A stretch of 64,000 bases of DNA from Nemertoderma westbladi (GCA_032718475.1 JAUCBJ010008261.1:55372-119371); one strand, 5' to 3'; positions 13,078 to 57,106 are shown, numbered from the stretch's first letter. Program-made: numbers and translations. Notes: generated by a model not told the origin, from the sequence alone.

Positions 13078-13598
13078 CCTCTGCTTTTCTTGCCCCTATG
13101 GAAATATGAGTCGTTCTAGAACATGACATAGTCTCCATAGTGGATCAGCAAGCGTCGTGTGCATTGCGAGCGTCTCTGAGTAGGCAGTGATTGGTTGATG
13201 TTTTCAGGCCCCCTGTTTGTGGCTTCAACTTCCGATTGGTACACAGTTTCTGGTGAGGTCATTGATATGTTTAGATCTCCATCCAACCAGTCATTCTTTC
13301 GTTCATGGTGATGTTCCGCTCTTCTTTGTCGTATGTTGTCGTAGTTAATTGGTGTGTTTGTCTTAATTTGCTTCCACTTCTGTGCGTCTCTAGTTATCTC
13401 TTTTCCATCCTGATTACCTTTTATTTGGTGGCCAACGACGTCTGTGACAGTATGAGGCTTTGGATCGAAAGATGGATCAAAATTGATTTTGTCTGTTTTT
13501 GTTTGAGCAGCACTTGGTCTCCTTTTGAAATTTCATGTGGCTTTACGAAGTGTTTGGCGTATTTGTATCCTTTCTGTTTTTCTTTGGCCAACATGTCA

Positions 13599-15084: not shown

Positions 15085-16536
15085 TTGGCCAACATGTCAT
15101 TGAATCGGGCTTCCTTGATGTCTTCACGCTCGAAAGTGTCAGCGGCATTGGGAGGCAGTTTTGGAATTTCCTTCCGAAGAGTAGTTCAGCAGGAGATTTG
15201 TTTCTCGATATTTGAGGCGATGCTCTGTACATTCGAAGGTGTTTGTTTAGTTCTGCTGTGGGATTTTTCTTCTCTATTATGGCAGTGTGCCATGTTTTCT
15301 GGCAGTGCTTCATGAAGCTTTCAGCCAGTCCATTGGCTTCTGGGTCTTCAGCACTTTGAGTTCCCTTGTGTTTTATTCCTGCCCATTTAATATATATTGT
15401 TGTAGCTCATGGGAATCTGATCCATTGAAGGGTGGTCCATTATCCATTTTAAGTGTTTTGCAGAAGCCATGCCGGGATGAGACCTCGTCAAATGCCTCAA
15501 TGTCTTATCAGAACTGGTACCATTTACTACCATTACTTCTGGGTACTTTGCAAGTTCATCAACAATGACCAGAAGAAATTTTCCATCTTCTTTTGGACCC
15601 CAGTGATTTGTGGATATATAATGCCATGGTTGCATGGGTGGTGTTTATGGAATGAGTTGGTCTGATGGTGGGTCTTGGTTGCCGCCTGGCAGGCGAGGGA
15701 ATTATTTACCCTAGATTCAACACATTTGTCCATATTTGGAAACCAAACTCTTGATCGGATGTGGCGTTTCATGGTGACAATCCCTGGATGTCCTTCATGA
15801 GCTGCATCAATGATCCATTGTCTAATGTTTACCGAACCTGGAAAGAACTCTCCATCTGGGACGACAATTTTGTCTCCCCTAATAACTAGGTCTGCAACAA
15901 TGCATAGTGCATTCCAGACTCGTCGATAGCCTTTGAGACTGCTTTCTGTTGGATGTTTGCCTAAGCGTAAGGTCTGGATTAGTTCCTGGTAAGTTTTGTC
16001 AAAGTGAGAAGCAGCTTTGAGTTCTTTGGTTGTTATTGTCTCAGGTGAGTCAATGATATTGAGTTTCTTGATGTAACTCTCTTTGCCTATGTCAATGCCC
16101 AGTCGTTCTTGCTGATCCTCGCTTAGATGTTTGATGGGGGTTGGATGCATGCACAGGGCATTTCCATTCCAGGAAGATGTTTCATTTTGAAGTTGAGGTC
16201 TTGTATCTGATCATGGTGTTTGGAGATTCGCTTGGAGGTTGCATTTTTGGAGTTGTGTAGTGGTATCAGTGGTTCGTGGTCGCTCCAGCTTGTGAAAAGT
16301 CCCCCCAATAAGTAGTACCTAAATTGTTGCATTCCCCACAATTGTGCAAGGCTTTCCCGTTACATTGGTGAATAATTATGTTCAGTCTGTAAAAGTACTC
16401 GGCTTGTATGTTCTACTGGTACCCATTTGTTCTGATCTTCTTCTTGGTATAAACTGGCTTGAATGCCAACTTCAGATGCGTCTGCCACAAAATGTGTTGG
16501 CAGTTCGGATTTGTAGGGTCGCAGTGTAGTTTCTGA

Positions 16537-16774
16537 CCCCCTGGTGGTAATAACATTCGGAGTGGTTGTGTTATCTGAAATTTCGCACTGTTGTGTCCCT
16601 AAGCAAGACACTTTAGACATTAGAGCCTACACCAACCCAGCGGTATAATGGGAACCTGGCTTTGCTGGGGTAATGATAATAAAATTTAATACGGTAATTT
16701 GATAAGGTTGTAAGACCCCTAAAGGCACCTGCTATAACAAATATAAGTACAATTATTATTATTATTATTATTAT
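16537..16774 (+). mobile_element. SINE-like insertion (Deu/Nin-like core, (ATT)n tail) in Gypsy RT/RH
   Basis: ttgtgtccctaagcaagacactt...acccagcggtataatgggaacc core followed by an (att)n tail; interrupts pol. Confidence 0.65.
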
Positions 16775-18679
16775 CTGTTCGTATGAATCAGGTACAGTGG
16801 GATGGTCGAAAGCGAATTTGGCATTATACTGCCATGCCATTAAGAGAGACCAACATCTTCGACACGTCCTGCTTCAATGATTGTTTTTATTTTCTTTGGA
16901 TCAGCAGCAACACCATATGGTGTAAAAGTACGACCATACCATTCAATTTCATTCATACCGAATGTGGACTTGCTTAGTTTTAGTGTGATCCTTAGCTAAT
17001 CCTGCCAGTGCTTTTCTAACCCCATTGTGGAAGATGCCACTTGATGCTGTAGGTCCGACATATAGGTGTTCCATGCGGTGTAATCCTTCATGTGTTTGGA
17101 ATATTGCCTTTTCTTTTGACTCTTCATCCAATTCAATTTGATGAAATGCCCATCCCATGTCCATTTCTGAAAACACTTTTGCCTCCTTTAGTTCATAACG
17201 GATCTCCTGTGGTGTCTGTACATGGAATTTGGTGCATTTCATACCATTGTTCTGGGGAGTGTTGTCGATGATCATTTTGTATTCCGCCAGATTATTTGTC
17301 AGTTATTACGATGTTCATCACACAGTCATATGACTTTCTTGGATCTACATCAGTGATAATCTTTTCCTTATGGAGGAATTTGATGAGTTCACTCACTTGG
17401 CCACGATAATATATGGGTATGTGGTGATGTCGGGGTTGTGTTGGTATAAAATTTGGGTCATAATCCAGGTGAATAGGTGTGGTGCTTTTCCCTATCTTGT
17501 TATTAGTAAAGACTGAGCCCTTATGTTTTTCGACAACCAACATTATTTCTGCCAATTTTCTCGGTGGAATTGTTGTTAATTATGGCCGCTCTGTGAGAAC
17601 CATCATATGAAGACCTTCTCTGAGTTTTTGAGGGATGCAATGTTGACTAGATATTTGATCTTTCTCTGTGATGGAGCAAACTCTGTTGGTGTCGCTAATG
17701 AATTTATTGTATGTTATGAATCCGAGATCTCTTGCATAAGAGGTCGCCAAGGAGTGGTTCAGGTTGGAATCCATCAACTATGTATACATTGCTGATAATC
17801 GAGGCCCCCCTCTGTGTTGCTAAGGTGGTATTGATCATTCCCTTGACATTAAGATTAGAGTTGCTACCCCATGCTCGCGCAGGTATGTGTTAGCCAGAAC
17901 TACTCTCCCCATTGTTGGTGTGTAGTTGGATGGTGGAATTATTGTAAAATCGCTCCCAGTGTCGATGAATAGGTGTTGGACAACATCCCCAATCTTGATA
18001 TCCACCCATTTGGAATCCTCAGATTTGTTTTTGAGTCTTCCAATGAGACATATCATTCTGAGGTCATGAGTGCAGTCTGAACATACACCAGGCCAATCCG
18101 AAATCTGTATTTGTGATATTGGTATATTCATGGCTCTTTCACCATAATTTATGGAGTATCTGTGTTGTCTAGCTCATGTTCGTGTATTCTATGAACCGGT
18201 TTGGGGCAAGCAGGTGTCCTCCTGAAGTGGTTGCGCCCTCCACAAGTGAAACATTCGTTGCCATTTGCTGGGCATCTCCTAGGAGCATGGGCTCCTCCAC
18301 AGTTGCAACACCCAGTCTGTTGGTTGTCACTGAAATCTGACTGTCGATCTCCTATGTTCCTTGAACTGTAATTTCCTTGTCGTCTTAGCTTCATGACCCT
18401 AAGTGTTTCCATTATCTCGTCAATGTCGTCATCATTTATGGCTTGCGCAGTTGTTGTTTCATTTCCAACCCGGGGTATTTGTCTCCCATTGTCATCCAGG
18501 GTGTGCAGTCCCACCCTACCTGTTTCCCTGGCCTGGCCCCATTTGAGAAGAGTATCTAGATTGGGGTCTTAGGCAAGGGCCTTTTCCTTTAGACGAGTGT
18601 CAGTCATGCCGAATATTGCAGCATCTCGTACTGCATCGTTATGGTTGTATGGATGTCCATCAAAGTTGAGAATGTACGA

Positions 18680-21600
18680 ATTGAAATTAAATTTCCTTCA
18701 CCACACAAACGAGACAAATCTTGTTACTGCCTTGTCCCACGAAGGGAACTATAGAAGCAATCAATTATATATATGGTCTCAAGCATTATGACTAGGCCTA
18801 GAGTTCAATGGGGTTGACATAGAGTTCATAAGTCATGATTGGATTATAACTCATTATCGAGTTTGTATTATGCAGAATGAGTTCAGAAATGTCAAGTTGG
18901 GGCTGATCTTTACTCCCATCATTATAAAACGAGTTTGAAACAAACTTGAAAAAGTTCACAGCGAGTTCTTCAATGATAATGAGTTTGATTTCCTTTGATA
19001 AGAGTTTTCTCCAGAGTTCAATGAGGATGTCATATTGATCTTTGGCTGTTGTTCGCTCAAGGGAATCCCGTTGAATCCCCCCTGTAGCCCACTCCCCTCC
19101 TCGCTCTGAGCATAACACGACCCAAGCTCCTCCCAAGGAATAAATTCCAAGGGAAGAAAATGACCTCCTCCATGTTGTCCGACTCAAGAAGATCGGCCCA
19201 TTCTAAACCCAGCGTATCGGTTTTTCTCTGGATACTGTCGAGGAGGAAGAATTGATCTCAGTCCCAGCCACTGAGATTGGAAGGAAGTACGACCTCGGGA
19301 TGGGGAATGTAGTTCATCTCACAATCCGTAGCCATTCCATCTGTTAACCAAACCAAAGGCTGTCCGGGGATGAACTGGAGCAGCCAGGTTTGGACAGCTA
19401 TCAATCCAACCTCAGGGTAAGTTAGTAATGCATAATCACTTTATACATGAACCAGTATTGATCCACAGTGTAATGTTTCAAAAGGTAGGTGTAATAAGTT
19501 GGCAAGGATTTAATAATAAAGTATCTTACATAAGACTAAGTCTCAATCAACATGATTATCCATTAGTCTCATCCAAATTGATTACTGATATATAACGTTA
19601 TTTAACCAATAAACAAAGGTCATACATGTTTACAACATGTTAAACAAACCACCACCAACAGGGTTACATTAAAAACCACAAAGGCTATACAAGTTTATAT
19701 TGGGTGAGTATGGACATTACACCTCTGCTTTTCTTGCCCCTATGGAAATATGAGTCGTTCTAGAACATGACATAGTCTCCATAGTGGATCAGCATGCTTC
19801 GTGTGCATTGCCAGCGTCTCTGAGTAGGCAGTGATTGGTTGATGTTTTCAGGCCCCCTGTTTGTGGCTTCAACTTCCGATTGGTACACAGTTTCTGGTGA
19901 GGTCATTGATATGTTTAGATCTCCATCCAACCAGTCATTCTTTCGTTCATGGTGATGTTCCGCTCTTCTTTGTCGTATGTTGTGACCTCGTCAAATGCCT
20001 CAATGTTATTATCAGAACTGGTACCATTTACTACCATTACTTCTGGGTACTTTGCAAGTTCATCAACAATGACCAGAAGAAATTTTCCATCTTCTGTTGG
20101 ACCCCAGTGATTTGTGGATAAATAATGCCATGGTTGCATGGGTGGTGTTTATGGAATGAGTTGGTCCGATGGTGGGTCTTGGTTGCCGCCTGGCAGGCGA
20201 GGGAATTATTTACCCTAGATTCAACACATTTGTCCATATTTGGAAACCAAACTCTTGATCGGATGTGGCGTTTCATGGTGACAATCCCTGGATGTCCTTC
20301 ATGAGCTGCATCAATGATCCATTGTCTAATGTTTACCGAACCTGGAAAGAACTCTCCATCTGGGACGACAATTTTGTCTCCCCTAATAACTAGGTCTGCA
20401 ACAATGCAGAGTGCATTCCAGACTCGTCGATAGCCTTTGAGACTGCTTTCTGTTGGATGTTTGCCTAAGCGTAAGGTCTGGATTAGTTCCTGGTAAGTTT
20501 TGTCAAAGTAAGAAGCAGCTTTGAGTTCTTTGGTTGTTGTTGTCTCAGGTGAGTCAATGATATTGAGTTTCTTGATGTAACTCTCTTTGCCTATGTCAAT
20601 GCCCAGTCGTTCTTGCTGATCCTCGCTTAGATGTTTGATGGGGGTTGGATGCATGCACAGGGCATTTCCATTCCAGGAAGATGTTTCATTTTGAAGTTGA
20701 GGTCTTGTATCTGATCATGGTGTTTGGAGATTCGCTTGGAGGTTGCTTTTTTGGAGTTGTATAGTGGTATCAGTGGTTCGTGGTCGCTCCAGCTTGTGAA
20801 AAGTCCCCCCAATAAGTAGTACCTAAATTGTTGCATTCCCCACGATTGTGCAAGGCTTTCCTGTTACATTGGTGAATAATTATGTTCAGTCTGTAAAAGT
20901 ACTCGGCTTGTATGGTCTACTGGTACCCATTTGTTCTGATCTTCTTCTTGGTATAAACTGGCTTGAATGCCAACTTCAGATGCGTCTGCCACAAAATGTG
21001 TTGGCAGTTCGGATTTGTAGGGTCGCAGTGTAGTTTCTGAGCTCATGGTGGTAATAACATTCGGAGTGGTTGTGTTATCTGAAATTTCGCACTGTTGTGT
21101 CCCTAAGCAAGACACTAAGACATTAGAGCCTACACCAACCCAGCGGTATAATGGGAACCTGGCTTTGCTGGGGTAATGATAATAAAATTTAATACGGTAA
21201 TTTGATAAGGTTGTAAGACCCCTAAAGGCACCTGCTATAACAAATATAAGTACAATTATTATTATTATTATCTGTTCGTATGAATCAGGTACAGTGGGAT
21301 GGTCGAAAGCGAATTTGGCATTATACTGCCATGCCATTAAGAGAGACCAACATCTTCGACACGTCCTGCTTCAATGATTGTTTTTATTTTCTTTGGATCA
21401 GCAGCAACACCATATGGTGTAAAAGTACGACCATACCATTCAATTTCATTCATACCGAATGTGGACTTGCTTAGTTTTAGCGTGATCCTTAGCTAATCCT
21501 GCCAGTGCTTTTCTAACCCCATTGTGGAAGATGCCACTTGATGCTGTAGGTCCGACATATAGGCGTTCCATGCGGTGTAATCCTTCATGTGTTTGGAATA

Positions 21601-23520
21601 TTGCCTTTTCTTTTGACTCTTCATCCAATTCAATTTGATGAAATGCCCATCCCATGTCCATTTCTGAAAACACTTTTGCCTCCTTTAGTTCATAACGGAT
21701 CTCCTGTGGTGTCTGTACATGGAATTTGGTGCATTTCATACCATTGTTCTGGGGAGTGTTGTCGATGATCATTTTGTATTCCGCCAGATTTTTTGTCAGT
21801 TATTACGATGTTCATCACACAGTCATATGACTTTCTTGGATCTACATCAGTGATAATCTTTTCCTTACGGAGGAATTTGATGAGTTCACTAACTTGACCA
21901 CGATAATGTATGGGTATGTGGTGATGTCGGGGTTGTGTTGGTATAAAATTTTTGTCATAATCCAGGTGAATAGGTGTGGTGCTTTTCCCTATCTTGTTAT
22001 CAGTAAAGACTGAGCCCTTATGTTTTTCGACAACCAACATTATTTCTGCCAATTTTCTCGGTGGAATTGTTGTTAATTATGGCCACTCTGTGAGAACCAT
22101 CATATGAAGACCTTCTCTGAGTTTTTGAGGGATGCAATGTTGACTAAATATTTGATCTTTCTCTGTGTTGGAGCAAACTCTGTTGGTGTCTCTAATGAAT
22201 TTATTGTATGTTATGAATCCGAGATCTCTTGCATAAGAGGTCGCCAAGGAGTGGTTCAGGTTGGAATCCATCAACTATGTATACATTGCTGATAATCGAG
22301 GCCCCCCTCTGTGTTGCTAAGGTGGTATTGATCATTCCCTTGACATTAAGATTAGAGTTGCTACCCCATGCTCGCAGGTTTGTGTTAGCCAGAACTACTC
22401 TCCCCATTGTTGGTGTGTAGTTGGATGGTGGAATTATTGTAAAATCGCTCCCAGTGTCGATGAATAGGTGCTGGACAACATCCCCAATCTTGATATCCAC
22501 CCATTTGGAATCCTCAGATTTGTTTTTGAGTCTTCCAATGAGAGATATCATTCTGAGGTCATGAGTGCAGTCTGAACATACACCAGGCCAATCCGAAATC
22601 TGTATTTGTGATATTGGTATATTCATGGCTCTTTCACCATAATTTATGGAGTATCTGTGTTGTCTAGCTCATGTTCGTGTATTCTATGAACCGGTTTGGG
22701 GCAAGCAGGTGTCCTCCTGAAGTGGTTGCGCCCTCCACAAGTGAAACATTCGTTGCCATTTGCTGGGCATCTCCTAGGAGCATGGGCTCCTCCACAGTTG
22801 CAACACCCAGTCTGTTGGTTGTCACTGAAATCTGACTGTCGATCTCCTATGTTCCTTGAACTGTAATTTCCTTGTCGTCTTAGCTTCATGACCCTAAGTG
22901 TTTCCATTATCTCGTCAATGTCGTCATCATTTATGGCTTGCGCAGTTGTTGTTTCATTTCCAACCCGGGGTATTTGTGTCCCATTGTCATCCAGGGTGTG
23001 CAGTCCCACCCTACCTGTTTCCCTGGCCTGGCCCCATTTGAGAAGAGTATCTAGATTGGGGTCTTAGGCAAGGGCCTTTTCCTTTAGACGAGTGTCAGTC
23101 ATGCCGAATATTGCAGCATCTCGTACTGCATTGTTATGGTTGTATGGATGTCCCATCAAAGTTGAGAATGTACGCCTTTTTCTCCAATTCGTTTATGAAA
23201 TCCATCCAGTTGCGTTTGCCTTGTTTAGAGTTTAGTAAATTATGTATTGCCATTGTCCTATTTACCAATTGTCGAAGCCCTGCTTTTGTCTTTTCGATGA
23301 CTTGAGTATAGGTGTCCGCGGGAACAGCGATATGGTTTGGTGTGGCAGCAATTTCTTCGAATTGAACCTTAGCATGAGTCTGCATGAATTCAACTAATTC
23401 GGTTCCACCACATGATTTGATGAGTATGATTTTAGCCTTGTCGCCCATTGTGCCAATATATGTCAAAATATTTCCTTTGTTCCATAGCCCCTGTGCTATT
23501 TGAATGGCCAATCAGCACAA
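18680..23520 (-). mobile_element. Degenerate Gypsy element, copy 2 (tandem duplicate with more gag; IN deleted at ~19983)
   Basis: Near-identical to 12056-18678; gag ORFs 23134-23511 and 22644-23009; lacks 13340-15480 of copy 1. Confidence 0.9.
21041..21271 (+). mobile_element. SINE-like insertion, duplicate of 16537-16774
   Basis: Same sequence and same position within the duplicated Gypsy. Confidence 0.65.
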
Positions 23521-25183
23521 TTTTCACTTTACGGATTCCTGAGAGTTTGTTTACATATGAATATGCCGCAATGCGACAGAATCATTCACTCTAAGCCAGA
23601 AGGCCTTAGACCATCAGTGGCTAGAGTTATAGAGCTCAAAGTAAATTATCTCTCCACTCTCTGCACTGCACTGCATGCACATCCTGACATCTAAAAACTT
23701 GGACTGTTGTACCGGCAAACATCTGATTGCTGATTAACTGCCGAGACCGCATATTTGATACTGTCTTATAATGGTATTCATTGTTGTTTGGTAACATATT
23801 TAATGGATGTTTATATTTGGAGAATACATATGAATAATCGATAATCCCAAATTACTTTCTTTATTATTAAGAAGTAAGCAGAAGGGAACATTAGTAACAA
23901 TTGCTTTGCTCAAATTACAGTGGTCTGTATGATATTTATGCTATTTCATAACCCGCGAGCTAAATTGAACATTGATTTGAATTGAAAATTGAACAACAAA
24001 TTTAACTAAATGAACAAAATTGGTAACAGTCAGCAAATTAGCGTGTTTCAGTATTATTGTCAGTAAAGTGAGTGCGAGTGAATAATTCTACATTCCTAAA
24101 GAATGTAAAATCGTGATGCTCTTTAAACAACTGTTGTAATTAATGTAAGTCATAGCTCTGTCTGATATTTAAAGCGCAGCATCTGATAGGAACTGTTGAT
24201 ATTACCCTGAAATTAAACATAGTTTTTGGAGATTATATAGTAGAGATCAATCAAATAATACAAAGTAGCCTACCCAACTCTCGCCGATAGAATTCAGTCT
24301 CCCATACACGGTGGGTCATACGCCACGCTAGACTGTCTTCTACTGTGGTCATATATTGTCCGGGCTGTTAGACAACATAAGACACATAAATTAACATGTT
24401 AAACTGTTAAAGCTCTAAAAGCACGAACACCTCCTACTGCAAACTTGAGGTCGAGTCCAGCTTCCCTAATCTTACTCGTAATATACCCACCCACCCATGG
24501 CTGAGATTCTATGTACTTCATATATAATTTGAGTTACCTTGTATAAGTGGTGGTTTATTCTACTCAAATATCTACTTATCTCATCGATGTTGTTCCTCAG
24601 ATCCCCGACGATCTCCTTTTCATCTTCCTTTTGGGGCCATCATCCCCTCGGTGTGGTTAAGGATCGTGTCGTTGATGATAGTCGTTGTCTAAAGGTAGGA
24701 GGTAGACTCGCTCCACTGATGGAGTCTGAGTCTCTGGGAAGCAGACTTCAACCTCACTCCCCCCATCGCCCACTGTTAGGGACCTCCCACTGGTGCCTTG
24801 GAACAGAGCTCGCCTTCCCCCCGCAGGGTAGGGTCGCTCGACTGGTCCTCAGACACCAGTCTGTCCTTGTTTAAACACTGCATTGCGATCTCGTGGGGTA
24901 TTAATGGGGTCTCCATCTGAATCAAGTCCTCGGGATCCTCTACTCCACCGATCGCACTGGCTACTATAGTGCCATCGATCGATCCAGGAGTAGTGAGTAG
25001 CAATTTAATTTGAAACCTGCGAAGGCTCCAAAACTCGACTACACTCAGGATAGCCACATGCCTCGTTTTATCCTGCAGTACCCAATGTGTATTCCTACTC
25101 ATTGATTAGTTTAGTTTGGCCAGTGCATACGGTGTCACATAGTTACAGAATTTAAATTAAGCCTATTTATATGGTTAACTTAC

Positions 25184-25309
25184 CCAAAGTGCAGACTTCA
25201 CCATTACCATAAAAGCCACTATTGCATTCACATGTGAAACCACCATTAGTATTTGTGCAGCTGGCATCAATGTGACAATTGTGAGTATTGGTAATACATT
25301 CATCAATAT
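25184..25309 (-). CDS. Host gene exon (5th): cbEGF module (D)[41 protein letters not shown]
   Basis: 126 nt, cag/gtaagt splice sites, phase 1-1, open frame. Confidence 0.92.
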
Positions 25310-26239
25310 CTGAAACATAAAATCAATTTTCTGAAACCCAATTAAATCCGGGATATAATAACTATTTAAATCATTGTGTGAAAATTAGCACTTTTCAACA
25401 TTATGGCCCGAGTGAATTTATTGTACTGAGCGAGCGCAGCGCAGCAAGGGAGTATTACATAAATATACAATAATATGTCTTAAACGCTAAATAGTAGCCT
25501 TGTTACACAATGATGTACGTACGTAATATTGTTAAATTATCGGCGTTCTGAATGCTTAACTATGAGCTTTAATATTGCAATGTTTAGGTGAATTATTGAA
25601 AATCGTCACTTTATGCAATTAATTGCAGTTGCAACTGTACGGTAAATTAATCTACTTACACTCACAGCCTGCTACAATGTCTATCATCAATGGATATTAA
25701 ACCAGACGTTTTATAGAAGTTTAATGTTATTACGTTAATCATTACTTTTGCAGCTTTCCCTCCTATATGCCGCTGCCAAGCCGGAACAATGCAAAAAGAT
25801 AGCTGCGTTATGACGAGTTTATCACATGTTCTCACTTATTTTAGCGGTTGATATATTGTTTATCACACCGTGTGATATACAGTTAGCTATATTCAAAAAT
25901 TATTTGAAACTTGTATTACTAATTAATTGCGTTTTTTTTAATATCAAAAATTATATACTAGCTAGATTTTGCTATTTTAATATTTTGTGTAGGCCCTACA
26001 CAATGTTCGTTATTAAATATAAAAAAAAGTTCTGGAACAATTTTCTGGAACACTTTTTATATAATACCGGTAGATAAGATTGGTCTTCTATTCTAAAGAT
26101 TGGTTTTCTAGAATTTGAATTGAACTAGCTACGTTTTTGTGATTAGTTCGAAATGTTTTAAATTTTAATAACTGTTATTCTTTGTTTTGTTTACCATAAT
26201 GAAATTTAAGAATGAAACTTAAGATTTAAAAATGAAACT

Positions 26240-29200
26240 TATCCGAATACACCTACAACACAATGGATGCAATATCCCCTTTCTTTTGTCTATTCAATTC
26301 ACAGTACCGTACAACCAAAATCAGCCCCTGACATGGCCGACAACAGTACCATTTGCCTCTCTGAAAGCATCCTCAAGCACGATCCGCCTCACAGATCCGC
26401 CAAATCCTTCTCCCTAGCTGGCGTCTCCATCTCCGAAGACGATATTGCTTCCCTGAACGCCAAAGGTTGGCTCACCGACAATATCATTGAAGCAGTAGCC
26501 CAATACCACATCAATATCCACCATGCCAGAGATCGAGCGAAGGTTTTCACCACCCATTTCCTTACCAGGTTTCGTTCAAGTGGCTTTCAAGGTGTTATTA
26601 ACTGGACCAAGCCAAATTTACTCCAAATGGAACACCTGCTTTTCCCCATCCACGTTGGGGGAAACCACTGGACGCTTGCTATCCTATCTTTGCATCCACC
26701 CACACTCCAGTATTTCGATTCACTTGGGGGCCGTGGTGATGCAGCCATCGAAGATATCAAGTCATGGTTTATTCTCGAATGCCAACGTCGCAACTCACCC
26801 TGCTCCACCATTACCATCAAACCACATCTCAAACGAGTTCAATTCAACAATCACCAGTGCGGTGTCTATGTCTCGAGGTTCATCGAGCTCTGTCTAGAGG
26901 GTTCATTAGGTCTCACCCGGGTCAATGATGGCACCATCCAGCCCTACAGAGCACATCTCCAGCACCTTGTCTCCAGGAACTCGACCTGCATCCCTCCACT
27001 CTCTCCGCCCAGACCAACCGAACCCACTGCTGAATCACCCAGCTTCCACCACACTGAGCCCGACTTTGTATCTGGTCCCACCACCAATTCGCCACTCCAG
27101 TCATCTGGCCAACCGATTGGCGAGCCCTTAGTCCCTTCCTTTTGCTTGCAAGACCTGGAACCTGGCACCATACACAGCATCACCAGGGATACTCACTGCA
27201 ACCAGTCATCCGATCTTACCACCACCAATTTACCCTACTCCCAGCATTCTGGCCAACCAGCCTGTGGATCGTCCACCATTTCATCTAGCCTGATAGATCA
27301 GGATCCAGACACAGTGCTTGTGCAAGATTCCACCACCGAATTACCCAGCAACCAGTCTCCCGACATTACCACCACCGATACACCACCTTGCTATTCTTCC
27401 AATCAATCAACCGATGAACTAGCCCAAACTACTTCCAGCCGGCAAGAACTATGCCCCATCTGCAACACACCCTTTCGCCGCAAATGGCTGGCTCACTGTA
27501 AGTCTTGCCTTGTCAAATTCCACGGTGCTTGTACCGGGCTAACGAAAAAGAACTTCGAGCTAGACCCCAACATGTCTGCGAACTGGCTCTGCAAGACATG
27601 TCGTCATTTCCCCACATCACCCACCCCCCCACCCTTTGGTACACAGCCAACAGTACCTCCACAACCCTGTCTAGATGATGTCTTCCGACAGGTATTCCAT
27701 GTCCTTTCTCTCAACAAGACTCTTCCACGTATCCCCCGAGGTGCCCGATCAAAAGCGTCATCCATTTACGTGAATCTATGTGAATCAGTGGTCCGGGAGA
27801 ATACCCCACGAACATGGCTTAATCTTCTGGCTTTCCCCTACAGCCTCAGGATCCCACAATCAACATCCAAGAAGCGTAGAGCCACTAAACCGTCAAACCA
27901 ACAATCCCTAACAACCAAGGTCAAAATCCAGCTTGTTGAGTATGTTAAGTTGACCAACGACCCGACCCATCCAGAGTTGCCGGAACCCAGGAAACCCCAC
28001 CAAAGGCCATCTACCAACTTGCCCAAATCCGTTGATGAAAAACTCGGTAAGCTCATCTCGATGAAGATAGAAGAAGGAAATGTTCGCGCCGCTGCCAGAC
28101 TAGCTTCTTCCTCGGCAACCATAGCTCCCCACAACTCTGAAACGTTACACTCTCTCCAGAAACTGCACCCATCCCGTCCGCTCGACGACTTCGAGGGAGT
28201 ACCAACCATTGAGGAGGCAGAAGCGCCTCTACTCGACCTATCTCAACCCGAAGTGGTCAAATCCATATTTTCGTTTCCAAATGGATCAGCAGCCGGGCCC
28301 GACAAGCTTCTCCCTCAAGTTCTAAAAGACCTTTGCTCATCCTCGGCAGGTGAAGCAGGCATGTGCTGTAGGAAAGCAGTAACCTCCATCGCCAATATAA
28401 TAGTCAAGGGTTTAGTACCCAAAGATGTCTGCCCCTACCTCCACGGAGCGCGCCTCTGTGCTTTTAATAAACCCGAAGGTGGTATCAGACCTATTGCTGT
28501 GGGATGTACACTACGCCGTCTCGCTGCCAAGACAGCCTGCCGAATGGCAGCCAGCCATTCTGACTACAAACTTGCCCCTCATCAACTCGGTTTCGGGACA
28601 CCCAGGGGGGCAGAGGCCGCAGTCCACTCTGCAAGGAGCTTCCTTGAGTGGTCCAACCACGAGGAACCTGTCGTGTTGGTAAAAGTCGACTTTGCGAATG
28701 CCTTTAATAGTGTACACCGAGGGCCTCTTTTATGGTCTGTTCTGGAAAATCTCCCACCACTGTATAACATAGCCTATCAGTCCTATGCCGCTCCTACATA
28801 CCTATTCTATGGCAAGGAGATTATTAACTCCGACAATGGCAGCCAGCAGGGTGATCCTTTGGCTTCCCTCTTCTTCAGCTCCGACATCCACGGGTTTGTG
28901 GACTCTTTAAACTGTATCTTCAATGTTTGGTTTCTTGACGATGGCTCCCTAGGTGGGTCTGCCCTTTCAGTTGCTGAAAATTTGAAGACCATCATCAGTG
29001 AAGCAGCTAAGTTGGGTCTATCGATCAAACCCTCTAAATGCGAACTCATCTTCCACAAGGACTTTCCTGCGAGTTTGAAGGAATCCACCCTCGCCACATT
29101 TCAATCCATCACCCCAGGCATTAAACCATTTGATTTCGAAGAATCCATCCTTCTAGGGGCACCACTTGGTGATAAGGCCTTGGAAACAGTCTTGGTGCAG

Positions 29201-30662
29201 AAACAGCTTGAACTATCTACCTTCGCTAGCCGTCTTCATCTACTTTCTGCACATGATGCCCTTTACCTTCTGAGACACTGTTTTGCAATCCCGAAGCTAA
29301 TGTACACACTTAGATGTGCTCCATGCTTCACATCACCACAGCTTGACATCTTCGATGAGACCATCAAAAAAGCTCTGGAAATCGCACTCAATATCCAGCT
29401 GGATGACATCACTTGGCGTCGTCAAGCCTCTCTACCCATCGCTCTTGGTGGCCTTGGGGTAAGGAGTACGAGGGACATCTCAATACCGGCCTTTTTGGCT
29501 TCGTTCTCAGGATGCGGTCCCCTACTCCAATCCCTTCTTCCACCACCGATCATCGAAGCACCCAACCACTGGTTCGACCAAGGCCTGAGAGCCCTTCCAA
29601 CAGACTACGAAATACCTATCAACCCCATATTCCAGAAAGCCTGGAGCAATCCATTGGATGTTACTGCCTCAAAGAAAATCCTCGATGGAGCGAAGTCCCC
29701 ATCACACAAGGCACGCCTTCTAGCTTCAGTGGCAGACCATGCAGGCGACTGGCTCCATGCCATCCCAATCTCATCTCTTGGTCTCCGCCTCAAGGATGAC
29801 CAGCTCCGAGTAGGTGTAGCGCTGCGTCTTGGAGCCCCTATCAGCGTCGAGCACAACTGCCGTGGTTGTGGCGGTCTAGTAGACAGATGGGCCACCCATG
29901 GCCTCTCGTGTATCCACAATTATGGGAAATTCACCCGTCACGCAGAGGCCAATGATATAATCCATCGTGCCCTAACCTCTGCAGGAGTTGTTTCTACCCT
30001 CAAGCCGCGAGGTCTGTCCCACGATGGTAAGGTGCCGGATGGAATGACTCTTGCACCATGGGCCACAGGAAAACCTCTCGTGTGGGACTTCACATGCAGG
30101 GACACCCTGGCCGCGTCCCACCTTCCAGGAACTTCCTCTACAGCAGGTGCCGCTGCCGCATCTGCCGAATCTGCAAAATTAAGAAAATATACCGAGCTCC
30201 AGCACAACTACCACTTCACCACTATTGCTGTCGAGACCCTAGGTGCTATCGGTAGCGAAGGAACACAAATCCTTCGAGAGATTGGCCGCCGCATCTCGCT
30301 AAAATCCGCCGAACCAAGGGCGACCACATTTCTCTTCCAGAGGTTGTTGATGGCCATTGTCCGGGGAAACGCCACCGCTGTGCTTGGTACCCTTCCAGCC
30401 AAGGCAGACCTCAACGAGATCCTACTCCTCTAGAGCCAACTACATCCGACCCCAGCTCAGCCTTCCACTAAATCCAATTTAGACCCCAACTTACCAACTA
30501 TTGATTGATCAATGGATTCGATTACCTACGAACTGTACCTAACTGAGTTTGTATTTATGTGATGGTACTAAATAATTGTATGATAATTAATCATATTAAC
30601 TACATACCATTAACAATATAGATGTATACCGGTAGCGAACTTGTTCTTAAATAAAAAAAAAA
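26240..30662 (+). mobile_element. Apparently intact CRE-like (RLE-bearing) non-LTR retrotransposon with poly(A) tail
   Basis: Single long ORF, short 3'UTR, aataaaaaaaaaa at ~30650-30662; GC-richer than flanks; 5' boundary approximate and no TSD seen. Confidence 0.8.
26267..30433 (+). CDS. 1388-aa polyprotein: Ulp1/SENP (C48) protease - S/T/P linker - PHD finger - reverse transcriptase - CCHC - restriction-like endonuclease
   Basis: WLTDNII, FTTHF, NHW (H134), YFDSL (D151), QFNNHQCG (Q192/C198); PHD CPIC..CKSC..FHGAC..WLCKTC; RT IRPIAVG, DFANAFN, SQQGDPL, WFLDDG; CRGC..HGLSC, RH, PDG..WDFTC..ESAKLRKY. Confidence 0.95.
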   Translation: MQYPLSFVYSIHSTVQPKSAPDMADNSTICLSESILKHDPPHRSAKSFSLAGVSISEDDIASLNAKGWLTDNIIEAVAQYHINIHHARDRAKVFTTHFLTRFRSSGFQGVINWTKPNLLQMEHLLFPIHVGGNHWTLAILSLHPPTLQYFDSLGGRGDAAIEDIKSWFILECQRRNSPCSTITIKPHLKRVQFNNHQCGVYVSRFIELCLEGSLGLTRVNDGTIQPYRAHLQHLVSRNSTCIPPLSPPRPTEPTAESPSFHHTEPDFVSGPTTNSPLQSSGQPIGEPLVPSFCLQDLEPGTIHSITRDTHCNQSSDLTTTNLPYSQHSGQPACGSSTISSSLIDQDPDTVLVQDSTTELPSNQSPDITTTDTPPCYSSNQSTDELAQTTSSRQELCPICNTPFRRKWLAHCKSCLVKFHGACTGLTKKNFELDPNMSANWLCKTCRHFPTSPTPPPFGTQPTVPPQPCLDDVFRQVFHVLSLNKTLPRIPRGARSKASSIYVNLCESVVRENTPRTWLNLLAFPYSLRIPQSTSKKRRATKPSNQQSLTTKVKIQLVEYVKLTNDPTHPELPEPRKPHQRPSTNLPKSVDEKLGKLISMKIEEGNVRAAARLASSSATIAPHNSETLHSLQKLHPSRPLDDFEGVPTIEEAEAPLLDLSQPEVVKSIFSFPNGSAAGPDKLLPQVLKDLCSSSAGEAGMCCRKAVTSIANIIVKGLVPKDVCPYLHGARLCAFNKPEGGIRPIAVGCTLRRLAAKTACRMAASHSDYKLAPHQLGFGTPRGAEAAVHSARSFLEWSNHEEPVVLVKVDFANAFNSVHRGPLLWSVLENLPPLYNIAYQSYAAPTYLFYGKEIINSDNGSQQGDPLASLFFSSDIHGFVDSLNCIFNVWFLDDGSLGGSALSVAENLKTIISEAAKLGLSIKPSKCELIFHKDFPASLKESTLATFQSITPGIKPFDFEESILLGAPLGDKALETVLVQKQLELSTFASRLHLLSAHDALYLLRHCFAIPKLMYTLRCAPCFTSPQLDIFDETIKKALEIALNIQLDDITWRRQASLPIALGGLGVRSTRDISIPAFLASFSGCGPLLQSLLPPPIIEAPNHWFDQGLRALPTDYEIPINPIFQKAWSNPLDVTASKKILDGAKSPSHKARLLASVADHAGDWLHAIPISSLGLRLKDDQLRVGVALRLGAPISVEHNCRGCGGLVDRWATHGLSCIHNYGKFTRHAEANDIIHRALTSAGVVSTLKPRGLSHDGKVPDGMTLAPWATGKPLVWDFTCRDTLAASHLPGTSSTAGAAAASAESAKLRKYTELQHNYHFTTIAVETLGAIGSEGTQILREIGRRISLKSAEPRATTFLFQRLLMAIVRGNATAVLGTLPAKADLNEILLL

Positions 30663-31536
30663 GAAGCAATTCCAAACATTCTTAGGCTACGTTCACTAAA
30701 ATATAATCAATATATTTTTCCAAAATATGTTCTGGAATAAAAAATATTTGTAACTGAAGGTTCATTTTTTCAAAATAAATAGCTAGCATATTCTAGAACG
30801 ATTTCTATACAAAAAGCTAAAAGTACTAGCTATAATAAAAATTTGGAGAGGAAAATACTAAATTGTGGAGTGGGGTTCGCTTTACCTTATAATGCAGGAT
30901 GGCCCTCTTCGTGTTCAACAAGTTCGAACACATGTGATAAACAGAATATCAGCAAATAAACTTTTTATAATAAACTTTGTATAACAACCTCGGCCTTCGT
31001 CATCGGTAGTTATACAAGTTTATTTGCTTCAGGTTGATATATATTGTATATCACTCCTAGAACATGTGATATTCTCTGTATATCACTAGATCTCTGATAA
31101 GTTGACATAATGTATTTTTTGCATAAAGCTTTGGTGCTGGTACTAAATATTTCACCCACCATCGTTATATGCAAGTTGGAGATGTCTTGTCTAGTGCCAT
31201 TTCATTTATTCCAACGTAATCATAACCCCAAAATATCGATGTAACTTAAAAATAGAGATTATACAATTATTGATATTTCATGCAATTGAATTTTCAAAAA
31301 AACTTTTCGAAAATTGTGACAAAATGTAGGGTTGAAAAATGGTGCTATATCATCATGTGGCAATAAAAACTTCACAGTTTTATTGAATTTTCTGCATTTC
31401 ATTTAAATCAAATGGTTTAAATGTGATAATTTTAATAACAACCCACTATCAAAGCCTACTGCGTGTTTGTAATTTGTTGCATGCCAGATGATGGGCCTCT
31501 CACACTCAAATGAAATCGAATGTCTAGTTAGCTTAA

Positions 31537-32264
31537 GGGGGGGGGGGGGGGGGGGGGGGGTACACCATTTTGGTCAAAAATATGTCGAAATTTTTTTTAT
31601 TATCTATTATAATGCACCATTGAATGGTGTTTTCAAATCTGAAAACCGCTATTTAATAGCTCTTTTAGTTTTTAAGTTATAACAATTTCCATTTAGGGAT
31701 TCCTATTGAAATTACTATTACTATGTATAATGAAAGGTCGATTATCTCAAAATATTTTTTTTATGAAATTGTCAACTTCAAAACCCTACTACTTCTACAA
31801 TTTTTGAGCAATTAGTCTGAAACTTTCTGTGGGTGTCTACATAGCCACCCTGCATAAACGTATCAGACAACTTTTCGAAATTATTTGTTAATAAAATTTA
31901 ATACTATTTATAACAAACCTAAAAATTAGGCATAAATTTGCAGCGCCACCTAGCGGTGCAGAATTATTTTTACAAAATTTCGCCTGATATTTATGTTGCC
32001 CCATCTTTGATCTATCATATAAAAAAACTTTCATGTGATTAGATTCAAAACTGTAAAAGCCTTAGGGTTTTAAGCGCAACCAAGTTTTTTTTGTTGTTAA
32101 CTAGTATTAACTAATATTAAATAGCGAAAAATAAAAATTTTCTAATCTGTCATGTAGAATAGCATCTTAGGCACCTATATACCAAATTATAGCCAAAACC
32201 AAACAATTTTGAAACGCTGAGAGTGATAAATCGAAGAGTTGTCCGAAAATGATGTACCCCCCCC
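31537..32264. mobile_element. Non-autonomous Kolobok-like DNA transposon
   Basis: TTAA on both sides; terminal inverted repeats (TIRs) gggggtacaccattttgg / ccgaaaatgatgtacccccccc with RR...YY termini. Confidence 0.75.
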
Positions 32265-32994
32265 TTAAAGGGAAAAGCTGGTCAGCTAAATGCATTTTTT
32301 GTTATCGAGTACTGCTGACAGCAAGAGAGTTGACTGCTCTATAATCAGTGCCGGATTAAGCCTCTGGTGGCCCTAAGGCACATTTTAGTAATTTCCAAAA
32401 ATGACCCGAAAATTGATAATTTTCCGCAAACCCTTTCAAAAGAAAAAGCTGCTAAAAACAACTGAAACTGTGAAAATGTTGCGAAGGAAATATAAAGTAT
32501 TTTCGTTGGATGACTGCGTACAAATAAGTACTAAGTACTATTTTGTGATAGACACAGTGTAGCAGTTACAAAATCGGTTCTAGAAGATCCAAATGGCCAT
32601 GTTTTACAAACCAATATTCACGATTGTAGCCGTAAAGATGCTAAACATTTTGTATAGGTTTAATGGAAATTGAGTAAAAAATAAAAAAGTAGTAGGGAAT
32701 TTAGTGATGAAAAAAGTCAAAATTGACAAACTGATAAAAAGGTTGTTTTATACAGAGAGGCATAAATATCAGTATTTATTATGTAGTTGAAAAGAGCAGT
32801 TTTGAGGTCAAAAAATAATTCAATGTCGAAAACCGATATTACCTTTTATGAAAGCCCTTCTTTCAAACAGCAAATAAATTGTGTAAATTTTCGAAAATTT
32901 CATTTCTGTAGGGGTTATAGTGAGCCCCCTTAAAGCTGACTGGTCCCTGTAGGTATTTAGCAATTTTGATCGGATTGTGGGAATGTGTTATTTA

Positions 32995-34479: not shown

Positions 34480-35200
34480 CAAAGGAATGATACAGAATTC
34501 GTGGGAAGATGACACATTGCGATCATACATATGAATTTGGAACAGATTCAAGGATTTAAAAATGGAAGTGTTTTCAACCTCCTCGGTGACAGTTCCAATC
34601 GACTCTGTGATATATTGGGGTGCTTTATAACCAAGCTAGACAAGAATGGCTACTCGCGAGTGACCATTTCAAACGTCATGTACACATGTCGGCAATTTCT
34701 TTGCCACATAAGATATTGAATGTCACAGATCCAACAAAAAGCTTATTTGTAACAAGATGTTTAGCTGGTCTTGGAAAAGGGGGGCAATGTCAGAGATGTC
34801 ATAATGTCAATATTCCATCAGGGATTATTAGTTCGATTCCAGTAATTTATGTAGATAATTATGTTAATGATTTATGTAGAGTAGCATTTTTGTTTGCATT
34901 TTATGCATTTAGGAGAGATTTTTCCCATCTTACATCAAATATAGAAATAGGTGATCATTAATTAGTCAGCTTTAATATTTTATAGTTATAACAGCGCCCT
35001 AATTCCACATCTGGTAACTTTCTTGTTTGGCAAAATGGTAATCCCGTATTTCGACATGAGTTTATAGCTGTCTTAAATAGAACACTGTTATTTAATAACC
35101 TCCACACCAATAATGCATACAAATCGCATAGCTTTAGGATTGGTGGGGTCACTGCATGGTAATAAACATTGATATTTGCAGTAATGTTATGGACCATAAG
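34480..35200 (+). pseudogene. Tyrosine-recombinase remnant of a DIRS/Ngaro retrotransposon
   Basis: SWEDDTLRSY..WNRF, SAISLPHKILNVTDPTKS, AFLFAFYAF and YKSHSFRIGG (catalytic HxxR motif); frameshifted. Confidence 0.7.
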
Positions 35201-35350
35201 CAGGCCATTTATATTCTTAATAACAGATACGTGAATACAAAGAAAGTCAGGTTTTAGAAGATATTGCAGAAATCATTTCAGATGATATACCGTATATCTA
35301 ACATAAAACAGATTTTAAATTAAAGTATGAAATATGCTAACATAACTTAC

Positions 35351-35473
35351 CAGTGCATGATTCACCATCACCAGAATAGCCATTATTGCATTCACATGTG
35401 AATGAACCAACAGTATTTGTGCAGCTGGCATCGGAGTGGCAGTTATCAGTATTGATATCACATTCATCAATAT
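35351..35473 (-). CDS. Host gene exon (4th): cbEGF module (D)[40 protein letters not shown]
   Basis: 123 nt, ctgcag acceptor, gtaagt donor, phase 1-1. Confidence 0.93.
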
Positions 35474-36466
35474 CTGCAGCATAACATATGGTTTAATTAA
35501 TTAAATATTAAGAGGAACGACACCACATGGCGGTGCAACTTTGTTGATAAGCCGGCATAGCATTCTTAATGCACGCTGCATTAGGCTTGCCAATTGTAGA
35601 TGCATGGTGTTGGTAAAATTATTTTGTTAAGCCGTAGCATCTCAATGTGCAGTCTCAATGCAGCAGGTCGATTATAGTAGTAGTAGTAGTTTGTAATCCG
35701 TCTTCCTAATGATATTGATTCCTCTCACAATGCTATCAAAACAAATTCCCCGCACTTTCTAACCTTACGAACTCTAATTACGACATAATAATTACTGGCG
35801 ACACTAATGTAGACTTACTAGACCCTAAAGACAAACCACATGAATACATTAACCTATTAAATACTTACGGCTTCTTACAATTAATAAACGCACCTACGCG
35901 ACTCACTCCATGGACCGAATCCCTTATAGATCACATTTTTACAAACATTACAATACAACATCCACAACCACGTCTGGCACTTTTCGAGTTAAAATTGGCA
36001 CCTCAGATCATCAACCAACCTTCACACCTTTTCATAACTATTCTTGTTTTTTTCAAAAATCCAGAGCCAAATACAATTTTTGATTTCTCCAAATTTAACA
36101 AAGTAAATGTTCTTAAAGATATTCAATCGGCTTCGAGTTGGTCATATACTTCGAATAAAATTAAAAAAATAGACAAATTTGATATTTTTGATAAACATTT
36201 AGAAAAAATTTGTGAAAAAAATGTTCAGAAAAAATAGTATCACCTCGAAAAATGCCCGATAAACCTTAGATGACTGAATCTCTTGTATCCAGTACCATAC
36301 AAAAAAATAAGTTATACCGGAAGTACTTAAAAAACCCAACAGAATCAAAACACTCAATAATTAAAAATTAACATCTCAACGTTCAGCAGAAAAAATATAC
36401 TACCATAAACAATTTCAAGAGAACTCAAACAACATAAAAAAACATGGTTGATTATAAACTCTGCTC

Positions 36467-41498: not shown

Positions 41499-43702
41499 CT
41501 GCTCTATCTAAATCTAAGAAATTAAACATTCCACGTCAGTTAACAGTTCGATCAGATAACGCAATAGAAACTATCACCGATCCTTCCAGAATAGCAACTA
41601 TTCTAAATAATCATTTTGCTACGATAGGACCACTACTTAATAAAAAAATCCCTTCATCAAACCGCTCCCCACTGCGCCATATCCAACACTCTAACAGACA
41701 TTCTAACTCTTTTTCATTAGTAGAAACTTCACCTGTAGAAGTGCAATACTACCTTCTTCATCTCAATCCTAAATCCGCTTCTAATGATACTCTTCCAACT
41801 AAACTTATAATGTTAGCAGATCAACCTATTTCTATCCATCTCAATTACTTAATAAACCTCTCCATCTCTCTCGGCTTTTTTCCAGACTCACTTAAAATTG
41901 CGAAAATTATCCCATCTTTCAAATCTGAAGACCCATCCGATCCAATCAATTATAGACCCATATCCCTTTTGCCTGTCCTTAGTAAAATAATAGAACAAAT
42001 AATCAATTCACAGTTACTTTCATATCTCAATAAATTCTCAATTATCTCATTCTCCCAATATGGATTCCGTCATAAAATCTCAACTTCTCATGCACAAACT
42101 TTCAGTAGTTGAAAAAATCCATCAGGCCTTAGATGATAAGAACTCAACATGCGCCATTTACATAGACCTGAAAAAAGCATTTGACACCATCAATCACGAG
42201 ATTCTTCTCAAAGAACTGAAAAGTAATGAAAAGTAAAGAAAAGCAAAGAATGTTATTGTTACGTTATCCGCGGCATCCCCTTACAATTAATAACTAGTTT
42301 TTTATCATCTATTCCAATTTGTTTCTATCTCTAATCATCATTCATCCCTTCTACCTCTAACCTGTGGTATGCCGCAAGGCGGGGTTCTGTCACCATTACT
42401 ATTCCTTCTATATATTAATGACCTACCTAAATGTACTGACCTACTAACTACTCTCTTTGCCGACGATACGACTCTCTTTCAGTCAGCAAACAATATAACG
42501 AACCTAATTACTGATACTAATATATAATTTAACAAGCTAAGCTGTCTGATTGTTTGATCGATAATCGCCTCTCTCTAAATCTCTACAAAACTGAATATAC
42601 TATCTTTACGATCTACTGGCAAAATTTAGACAATTTACCTCCAATAAAAATAAATTCCAATAATGTAAAAAATCCCAATGTACAAAATTCTTAGGCATCT
42701 ATGAAGACAATAAACTCTCATGGAAACCTCACATAAAATATATTACTAAGATAATCTCTAGGACTTCAGGCATTTTTTATAGATTGCGCCATATTTTTTT
42801 TTCCTCTGAATATTCTACGTCAGCTGTACTTTACTTTGATACACCCCTATCTATCCTATGGACTAATTCTGTGTGGGAGTACATACTCTACTATAATAAA
42901 ACCGCAAAAGCGTACTAAAGTAAATAAATTAATCAGATGCATAACATTTTCTCAATATCAAGCCTCTTCAAATCCCATTTACAAAACACTTCACATTCTA
43001 CCTCTTAATCTACTATATAAACATCAACTTGCGCTCTTCATGTATGACATAAATAACTCTCTATCCAGTATTACTGATATAGGAATTTTTTTTAGAAAAA
43101 CTGAATCAATACAGAAGTACCCTCCCTACACGCTCTTCCTCTCGCGGTGATTATTACATACAAACTGCCCGACTCACGTCTACCCAACAATCCGTAAGCT
43201 TCCAAGGCCCCCTGATCTGGAATGTCATCCCACCCTACATCAGGGAAAATAAATCCAAAGTTTCATTTTACCGAACATACAAAAAATTACTGTTCTCTAA
43301 AATATAATAGGTCTCCACTAATTCCATTTATTTAATCTCAAAAAGTCCTTTACTATATCCTTCCCCCACTCTATATTATTATATTCAAATTTATAAAATA
43401 AATCCAAAATATTTTACTTCATGTCTGTTTCGCTAAATTCTAACAGACTAGACGAAATTCACAGGAAAAATTTTAAATTCTAAAATACTGTTATCTAAAG
43501 CATTTGTAAATTAGAAATAAAAAATTAAAATTATTTATTGTGTGCGATTTAATTTTATTTGATAGATATGAAAGAAATTATTATACTTGATCCTGATACT
43601 CATAATTTTATTTGTATGGGCTCTCGGTGAATTTGATTATTGGTTGGTTACCAGATATAATTATTCAATATTCAATAGTGTATGCTAATATAACTAACTT
43701 AC

Positions 43703-56983: not shown

Positions 56984-57106
56984 CAGTGCATGATTCACCA
57001 TCACCAGAATAGCCATTATTGCATTCACATGTGAATGAACCAACAGTATTTGTGCAGCTGGCATCGGAGTGGCAGTTATCAGTATTGATATCACATTCAT
57101 CAATAT
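56984..57106 (-). CDS. Host gene exon (2nd): cbEGF module, nucleotide-identical to 35351-35473
   Basis: 123 nt, ctgcag/gtaagt, phase 1-1. Confidence 0.93.

Follow-up and report, generated by a model that had tools for sequence, protein, structure and literature searches.

Introduction

The CRE clade of retrotransposons includes SLACS, CZAR and CRE1/2, the fungal elements MoTeR, Cnl1 and FoTeR, and animal CRE families, according to passages of three reports (PMC12278014, PMC3636483, PMC12857005). Here, we describe a CRE-like element from Nemertoderma westbladi that encodes a predicted SUMO protease, assigned to the Ulp1/SENP1-2 branch of the C48 family, and a PHD finger ahead of its reverse transcriptase (RT). 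It lies in a 64,000-nucleotide stretch of DNA (GCA_032718475.1 JAUCBJ010008261.1:55372-119371), hereafter the window, from whose first letter all positions are counted. As described in the same passages, CRE elements resemble it in having just one open reading frame (ORF), an RT followed by a CCHC knuckle and a restriction-like endonuclease (RLE), internal repeats and a target duplication. They differ in bearing one or two zinc-finger-like motifs, where this element has N-terminal C48 and PHD domains, and in targeting spliced-leader genes or telomeres, whereas it sits in a repeat resembling a miniature inverted-repeat transposable element (MITE) and has no poly(A) at its junction. These passages contain no mention of a protease on CRE elements.

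Ulp1-like domains are known from NeSL elements and from Utopia-1_TSP in passages of Kojima and Jurka 2015 (PMC4640811). As in our element, the protease of nematode NeSL elements and Utopia-1_TSP is N-terminal on a single-ORF RT-RLE protein. It is however reduced, and the FF...GY.GV.RWTK segment that is missing there is largely kept here; no PHD finger is mentioned in the main text of that report. Ulp1 and PHD occur together on Ginger1-9_HM, and Ulp1, PHD or OTU on Mutator and Helitron elements (Bao et al. 2010, PMC2836005), a report that states 'either OTU or Ulp1, but not both' and proposes a ubiquitin-pathway role in transposition. Ginger1-9_HM thus shares with our element the presence of Ulp1 and PHD on one transposon protein, but Ginger1, Mutator and Helitron are DNA transposons, with the Ginger1 domains at the C-terminus, whereas ours is an RT-RLE retrotransposon from a lineage that adds USP as a third option. 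The non-LTR (long terminal repeat) element Dualen-1_GCr likewise combines a C48 peptidase and a chromatin domain, in its case SET, with RT, CCHC and RLE, but differs (PMC5029228) by its length of 5287 aa, its apurinic/apyrimidinic endonuclease (APE) and RNase H, its membership of the Dualen group and its cryptophyte host. The parts of the architecture are therefore already known, with Ulp1 on NeSL, Utopia and Dualen elements and Ulp1 plus PHD on Ginger1. The purpose of Ulp1 and OTU domains on transposons has been open since the NeSL-1 and Ginger/Mutator reports.

Results and discussion

A predicted SUMO protease at the N-terminus of the element

The element encodes 1388 aa in a single stop-free frame on the plus strand (26267-30433), with a second ATG at 26333 (M23) as an alternative start. 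A previous annotation of the window (the sequence-only reading) had described it as the only uninterrupted long ORF, and it is indeed the sole stop-to-stop frame longer than 544 aa among the 27 frames of at least 150 aa. Its GC content is about 50%, against 32-34% in the flanks, and the other long frames of the window look, as judged by reading only, like broken retrotransposons and transposases, a content suggestive of an animal genome.

The protease (aa ~45-235, 26399..26971, plus strand) matches the Pfam Peptidase_C48 profile (PF02902) over aa 68-212 (E 7e-14, 52.6 bits, cut-off 20.7). SENP2 (E 3e-17), SENP1 (8e-16), SENP5 and yeast Ulp1 (1e-12) rank far ahead of ChlaDub2 (6e-6), SENP8 (0.05) and Ulp2 (0.22) in the PDB, and the 30 nearest Atlas clusters are C48. 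The residues proposed as catalytic by the sequence-only reading, H134, D151, Q192 and C198, all stand at their assigned positions, and the SENP1/2-like spacing that it recognized is borne out by comparison with SENP1, whose His533/Asp550/Gln597/Cys603 set (passages of PMC10882314) shows the same separation of 17 residues for H134-D151 and 6 for Q192-C198. In the SENP1 numbering of PMC10882314 and PMC12652906, the positions kept are Trp465, Asp468, Trp512, His529, His533, Trp534, Asp550, Gln597 and Cys603; the residues marking the domain in our protein are W68, D71, W113, H129, H134, W135, D151, Q192 and C198. Like cellular SENP1, SENP2 and Ulp1, the domain thus has the catalytic His-Asp-Cys set, the oxyanion Gln and two tunnel tryptophans. 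Unlike them, it is fused to an RT and has no N-terminal targeting region, and its identity, counted on the alignment with SENP2, is about one-third.

Several positions conserved among SENPs are altered (Phe496 to H97, Arg511 to N112, Val532 to N133 and the Asp preceding the catalytic Cys to Q197), and five of the seven pocket residues named in the passages of PMC10882314 are kept, Arg511 being lost. These changes at SUMO-contact positions could indicate a shift of the protease toward ubiquitin or NEDD8, as in bacterial CE-clan enzymes, and thereby a task identical to that of the USP and OTU domains that we describe below in its relatives, since all the other captured proteases of the lineage are of deubiquitinase types. 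The wide lead of SENP2, SENP1, SENP5 and Ulp1 over ChlaDub2 and SENP8 speaks against such a shift, which we consider very improbable.

The protease keeps the 'F..F...GF.GV..WTK' segment of cellular Ulp1 and SENP1/2, whereas S5 Fig of PMC4640811 shows 12 rows of NeSL and Utopia elements, all of them without the FF...GY.GV.RWTK equivalent. We infer from this that a cellular gene of SENP1/2 type was captured independently here. The domain lies within the unit bounded by the target-site duplication, contains no intron and has a GC content at third codon positions of 0.545, compared with 0.49-0.52 in the core; it was likely captured from a host gene. A protein search with the protease alone returned one match, P0002, a protein of 1054 aa that begins with a C48 domain but lacks an RT, and the corresponding search of metagenome and viral contigs returned none. 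Separately, a two-row alignment search found one related gene on a giant-virus contig (L081:701-1156, 33% identity). These searches were word-limited and so do not demonstrate absence.

Relatives of the element carry other tag-removing proteases

Searches with the RT-RLE core gave 109 and 150 proteins, the latter being the best of 20,308 at E<=0.001, and 253 of these relatives were distinct; related loci were taken as the best 80 of 377. Local profiles were run on all 253 proteins and Pfam on 50 chosen ones. C48 was found in 0 of the 253 proteins and 0 of the 80 loci, but only 25 of the 253 have at least 150 residues before the core, so that the missing domain mostly reflects short or cut N-termini. 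A weak C48 match in one locus, L040 (E 0.024), falls inside the core region and was treated as chance.

A C-terminal USP deubiquitinase is present in eight of the 253 relatives (P0114, P0131, P0147, P0142, P0153, P0136, P0130 and P0202), as well as in the cluster members P0257, P0260 and P0299, and an N-terminal OTU domain, accompanied by C2H2 fingers, in one (P0063). Pfam finds five of the eight USP domains to be complete; for a sixth, cluster member P0257 has the complete form, and two are cut short. The complete domains keep the Cys and His boxes. They are of several kinds, since P0131 is USP2-like (E 3e-91), P0142 is USP35-like (E 7e-53) and P0153 and P0202 are close to neither, and the longer domains share 21-38% mutual identity. 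Sister elements bear different USP kinds. A tree was built with a quick method from 31 rows, selected so that every carrier was present together with its neighbours, while the other 160 of 191 rows were omitted. It requires 8 changes to account for the ten carriers, and starred branches force 6 of them. It can safely be said from these sequences that the carriers appear on at least four separate branches, some of the non-carriers being truncated. Several of the USP and OTU carriers are found on 4.3-4.7 kb contigs, a length that would match a collapsed element.

Tag-removing proteases have been captured repeatedly in this lineage. What appears to be new here is the presence, on separate branches, of USP deubiquitinases of several subfamilies and of one OTU domain on a CRE-like core. 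The sequence-only reading had instead emphasized Ulp1 and PHD together on a CRE-type RT-RLE as an uncharacterised architecture. In its favor, no description of a C48, OTU or USP domain on a CRE element was found in the parts of the literature covered by a search not extending to Repbase. The claim is weakened by the Ginger1-9_HM combination, by C48 on three other non-LTR groups and by the frequency of PHD fingers in relatives (21 of the 253 proteins and 8 of the 80 loci), which makes the finger an ordinary accessory of the lineage. PHD and USP occur together in four of the eight USP carriers; these four lie in one clade and are not independent.

Two further CRE-like relatives, P0113 and P0121, which are sisters in the tree, combine a PHD finger with an RFX DNA-binding domain (Pfam E 6e-11 and 6e-12), a possible target-recognition module. 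The top Atlas cluster for the whole protein (score 0.87) has RVT_1 in 100% and C48 in 28% of 50 members; these may be of NeSL type or of the present type, and we treat the cluster as a lead only.

The protease is part of a recently inserted element

Other copies were sought in contigs of three runs (X1, X2 and X3) from two samples, covering 61-79% of sampled words; a further run, X5, has no contig cover over 26102-28237 or the left flank and carries no inference on them. The copy in the window, for which the sequence-only reading had given no ends, spans 26074-30625 and is flanked by a 10-bp duplication, ATACCGGTAG, at 26064..26073 and 30626..30635 (plus strand), the only two places at which this 10-mer occurs in the window. 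Its palindromic core, TACCGGTA, occurs six times in the 64 kb (160, 26065, 30627, 47323, 47970 and 48078), and the duplication was therefore checked against the contigs of other samples. An empty form with one copy of ATACCGGTAG was recovered in X1 (3 contigs) and X2 (7 contigs), in which left-flank-like sequence is joined directly to 30626; in X3 and X5 contigs, 26058 is joined to 30636 with ten other letters between, and another joint that skips the insertion links 25470 to 31093. The empty-form contigs probably represent other copies of the host repeat and not an orthologous allele. This repeat, which is MITE-like with short inverted-repeat arms, extends over 25815..31076 with approximate outer limits, as delimited by the inverted repeats I3, I7, I13 and I19 and by the insertion-skipping joints, and the retrotransposon sits inside it.

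The element is recently inserted. Between the left duplication and the first ATG lies an AT-rich 5' untranslated part (26074..26266, plus strand), and the ORF is followed by a 3' untranslated part (30434..30625, plus strand) with no poly(A) at the right junction before 30626. Some contigs of other copies diverge after 30564, so that the ends given are those of this copy and the family ends are not fixed. TACCGGTA could be a preferred target. Specificity for a target is more than one site can show. The possibility that neighboring DNA had been joined in frame by accident was considered as the origin of the fusion and rejected, because the protease lies within the duplication-bounded unit and is found in other samples.

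The sequence-only reading had made its case depend on the protease being present in other copies, and it is present nearly unchanged in X1, X2 and X3: the main contigs cover it with 0-1 differences (X1 26253-26616 and 26645-26982; X2 26303-26709; X3 26297-26493 and 26495-26799). In X1, contigs reach a depth of 136-149 across the protease and 162 across the RT, against 40 for a flank contig, with similar ratios in X2 and X3. Although depth does not equal copy number, these values suggest a few copies, most of them with the protease. The SENP1/2-type protease is a stable part of the family. Copies with frameshifts in the protease (at 26724, 26753 and 26874) occur at lower depth, and stop-bearing copies are also present. 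Read differences in the PHD region come from a decayed copy, whose codon 427 is a stop, and are uninformative on selection.

The low copy number that the family appears to have, its frameshifted copies and the lack of C48 among the relatives surveyed would also fit a passenger, a fragment of SENP mRNA that template switching fused in frame and that brings no benefit to a young family of small size; the sister protein P0003, being cut off at its start, cannot show the domain. However, the protease retains only about one-third identity to SENP2 and has lost several near-invariant SENP residues, yet keeps every catalytic residue in frame, as would be expected if it had long resided in the element under selection. 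That one enzyme class should be captured time and again is likewise unlikely for passengers, and we regard this explanation as improbable.

The copy in the window has an open frame and is likely methylated and impaired. Eighteen differences separate it from all three runs (best-supported rows), 14 of which are C-to-T or G-to-A changes toward the window; among these transitions, again for the best-supported rows only, 9 of 14 are located at CpG, where 15% would be expected (p 5e-5). Such CpG-biased decay, seen here in transitions private to this copy, is the mark of methylation, so that family copies do get methylated. Three residues depart from those conserved in 191 aligned rows: K1246, where 185 rows have E and where one of the shared differences puts the K, V1256 (R in 176 rows) and L1361 (S in 147 rows). 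Contigs of all three runs have the conserved residue at positions 1246 and 1361. The 'intact' element of the sequence-only reading is thus intact in its reading frame but not in these residues.

The element is CRE-like

The region preceding the RT (aa ~480-733, 27704..28465) is conserved with CRE-like relatives. It is followed by the RT (aa 734-929, 28466..29053), which matches Pfam RVT_1 over the same residues (E 2.7e-12), and by a CCHC knuckle and an RLE with an RH..E..PD..D pattern (29858..30430), all on the plus strand; the conserved RLE positions mentioned above are those occupied by K1246 and V1256. The profile searches that the sequence-only reading had proposed as a check therefore matched for both C48 and RVT_1, and the RT, CCHC and PD-D RLE were recovered with the QQGDPL, WFLDDG and PDG...PW...WDFTC signatures that it had listed. 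No useful relative of the RT-RLE part was found in the PDB (best E 0.29).

A YLDD/YADD motif is a mark of CRE elements. This mark was not found in the passages of PMC12857005, whose SLACS/CRE endonuclease pattern our protein fits except for RHA in place of RHD/N, K in place of E and V in place of R/K. QQGDPL occurs in 195 and [WF][YF][LM]DD in 169 places among the 253 homologs, one of which (P0004, 42% identical) bears the source label 'Retrotransposable element SLACS protein'. The layout, in which one ORF places CCHC and a PD-D RLE after the RT, matches that of the CRE clade, as does the 10-bp target duplication: all known CRE elements make duplications, whereas all described NeSL elements make deletions, according to passages of PMC3636483. 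Two traits of trypanosomatid CRE elements, insertion in spliced-leader RNA genes and a poly(A) tail, are unmatched, with 0 Rfam matches at E<=1 across 25000-32000 and no poly(A), and the element was accordingly filed as CRE-like and not as a SLACS-type member.

The CRE-like rather than NeSL-like character of the RT-RLE claimed by the sequence-only reading is thus upheld by the duplication, the SLACS-labelled homolog and the QQGDPL and WxLDD motifs common to homologs. Membership of the CRE clade is likely from these sequence features, the trees having been made without reference CRE or NeSL sequences. Both place P0003 as the sister, with 48% identity and support values of 1.0 and 99; this protein ends before the accessory region. 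Membership of NeSL was rejected in view of the duplication in place of a deletion, the cellular-type protease and the lack of a spliced-leader or U2 target by Rfam.

The linker and the PHD finger

The protease and the PHD finger are separated by a Ser/Thr/Pro-rich linker (aa 236-393, 26972..27445, plus strand) with weak internal repeats (families D1 and D2). An N-terminal protease followed by a 160-aa low-complexity linker, along with altered SUMO-contact residues, would be compatible with polyprotein processing, in which the C48 domain would release itself, or else the PHD finger, from the RT-endonuclease in the manner of viral CE-clan proteases. Gly-Gly pairs are however confined to the protease (131 and 154) and the RT/RLE core (738, 896, 1061 and 1202), and a sequence scan found none between residue 156 and the RT. 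Seven of the nine USP/OTU junctions in relatives likewise lack Gly-Gly, most relatives have no protease at all, and USP and OTU domains are not known to act as polyprotein proteases. This alternative, which the sequence-only reading had also entertained, is weakened by linkers without Gly-Gly and by USP and OTU domains filling the same role in relatives, and we judge it quite unlikely.

The C4HC3 PHD finger (aa 395-445, 27449..27601, plus strand), which the sequence-only reading had placed at about 27452-27601, was confirmed by its eight ligands, although its Pfam match (aa 396-445, E 2e-4, 21.7 bits) is just below the cut-off of 24. Its closest solved relatives are the PHD fingers of PPS and DIDO (E 3e-4 to 9e-4), which have a tryptophan at the cage position where our protein has Lys; the cage tryptophan is present in 5 of 16 PHD fingers of the lineage. 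A finger reading H3K4me3 was rejected on account of this replacement of an invariant residue. The criteria for unmodified H3K4 in passages of PMC3241642 are an acidic cluster before Cys1 and a hydrophobic residue before Cys3, and one Glu is found in the six residues before Cys1. Of the histone H3 reading suggested for this finger by the sequence-only reading, the H3K4me3 form is thus not predicted, and recognition of unmodified H3 is possible from the sequence.

Proposed role of the protease

Elements of this kind use target-primed reverse transcription for insertion and show a strong cis preference; little of the element protein is made, and at the target it acts on the RNA that encodes it. 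Proteins that linger on damaged DNA are cleared by SUMO and subsequent SUMO-targeted ubiquitination. The presence on one core of tag-removing proteases from three unrelated families points to a SUMO or ubiquitin conjugate as the substrate rather than a polyprotein, and fusion of the enzyme to a scarce protein that acts on its own RNA at the target favors action in cis during insertion. We tentatively favor, at a little under an even chance, a model in which the protease stays attached to the RT-endonuclease and removes SUMO in cis during insertion. The SENP1/2-type enzyme would remain fused to the RT-endonuclease and would take SUMO off its own protein or off neighbors at the nicked target, while the PHD finger would tether the complex to chromatin, though not as a reader of H3K4me3. 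The two enzyme types, deSUMOylase and deubiquitinase, could be interchangeable because either might interrupt one SUMO-to-ubiquitin clearance chain.

Several observations weigh against this model. The altered SENP positions mean that the substrate may differ from SUMO, and the single-sequence AlphaFold model is unusable (pLDDT 40). The USP and OTU fusions are known from protein sequences, and 244 of the 253 relatives, many of them truncated, are without a protease, which indicates that it is dispensable in the lineage. Finally, the cis action at the insertion step is our inference only, and the same data fit an anti-silencing function.

In that alternative, which the sequence-only reading had put forward as a candidate, the PHD finger returns the protein to chromatin, silencing factors are deSUMOylated at the element's own loci and its copies stay transcribed. 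The association of a PHD finger with a protease, here and in half of the USP carriers, is consistent with it, although the carriers concerned belong to the single clade noted above. USP2/21-type enzymes act on ubiquitinated H2A, which we also count in its favor. Piwi-guided transposon silencing in Drosophila needs SUMOylation of Panoramix (bioRxiv 10.1101/2021.07.27.453956), and VANC21 provides a transposon-encoded precedent (PMC8616336). However, VANDAL/VANC anti-silencing acts in a sequence-specific manner on its own loci and lowers silencing marks, whereas we saw no domain that would bind the element's own DNA, and the CpG decay of this copy points in the opposite direction. The PHD finger, with Lys at the cage position and one acidic residue before Cys1, also speaks against this function, and yeast Ulp1 represses Ty1 and does not free it (PMC8585004). 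A self-encoded anti-silencing system is thus left without support from targeting domain, cage residue or decay pattern, and we consider it unlikely.

A wider proposal, which we hold to be doubtful, is that animal CRE-like retrotransposons are serial collectors of such enzymes (a SENP1/2-type deSUMOylase, OTU and at least four USP kinds), gained on separate branches and swapped between sisters, and that these would defeat one undescribed host step. This step might be SUMO-primed, ubiquitin-dependent removal of the RT-endonuclease from the target, or else new inserts might be silenced through SUMO/H2A-ubiquitin. The element described here is by itself only one more carrier on a known list, and the repeated captures carry the main weight. 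With C48, OTU and USP replacing one another and most members having none, the purpose of these domains becomes testable by domain deletion or swap, and the lineage, if the proposal is true, would amount to a swap experiment made by nature on the reason for the presence of such enzymes in transposons. Should the enzymes protect the insertion complex, they would reveal a host restriction step, with possible relevance to RLE-retrotransposon gene-insertion tools.

Other features of the window

The remainder of the window contains several broken or repeated elements. A 2.5-kb palindrome (3606-6102, 95% identity) of a broken APE-type retrotransposon is either a true foldback or an assembly artefact. 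A tandem duplication with a 4.5-kb period and 98.5% identity (15478-18678 / 19981-23174 and 12056-13339 / 18680-19983) looks like a broken LTR-retrotransposon pol region, and 41499-43382 / 59686-61566 and 34928-36116 / 56563-57748 are 97% identical broken copies resembling a long interspersed nuclear element (LINE). Three adjacent minus-strand frames at 45801-48016 look like a broken DNA-transposon transposase. To the right of the host repeat, a very high-copy repeat occupies ~31450-32500, with a summed contig depth of 10^4-10^5 in X1-X3 and <10^3 in X5.

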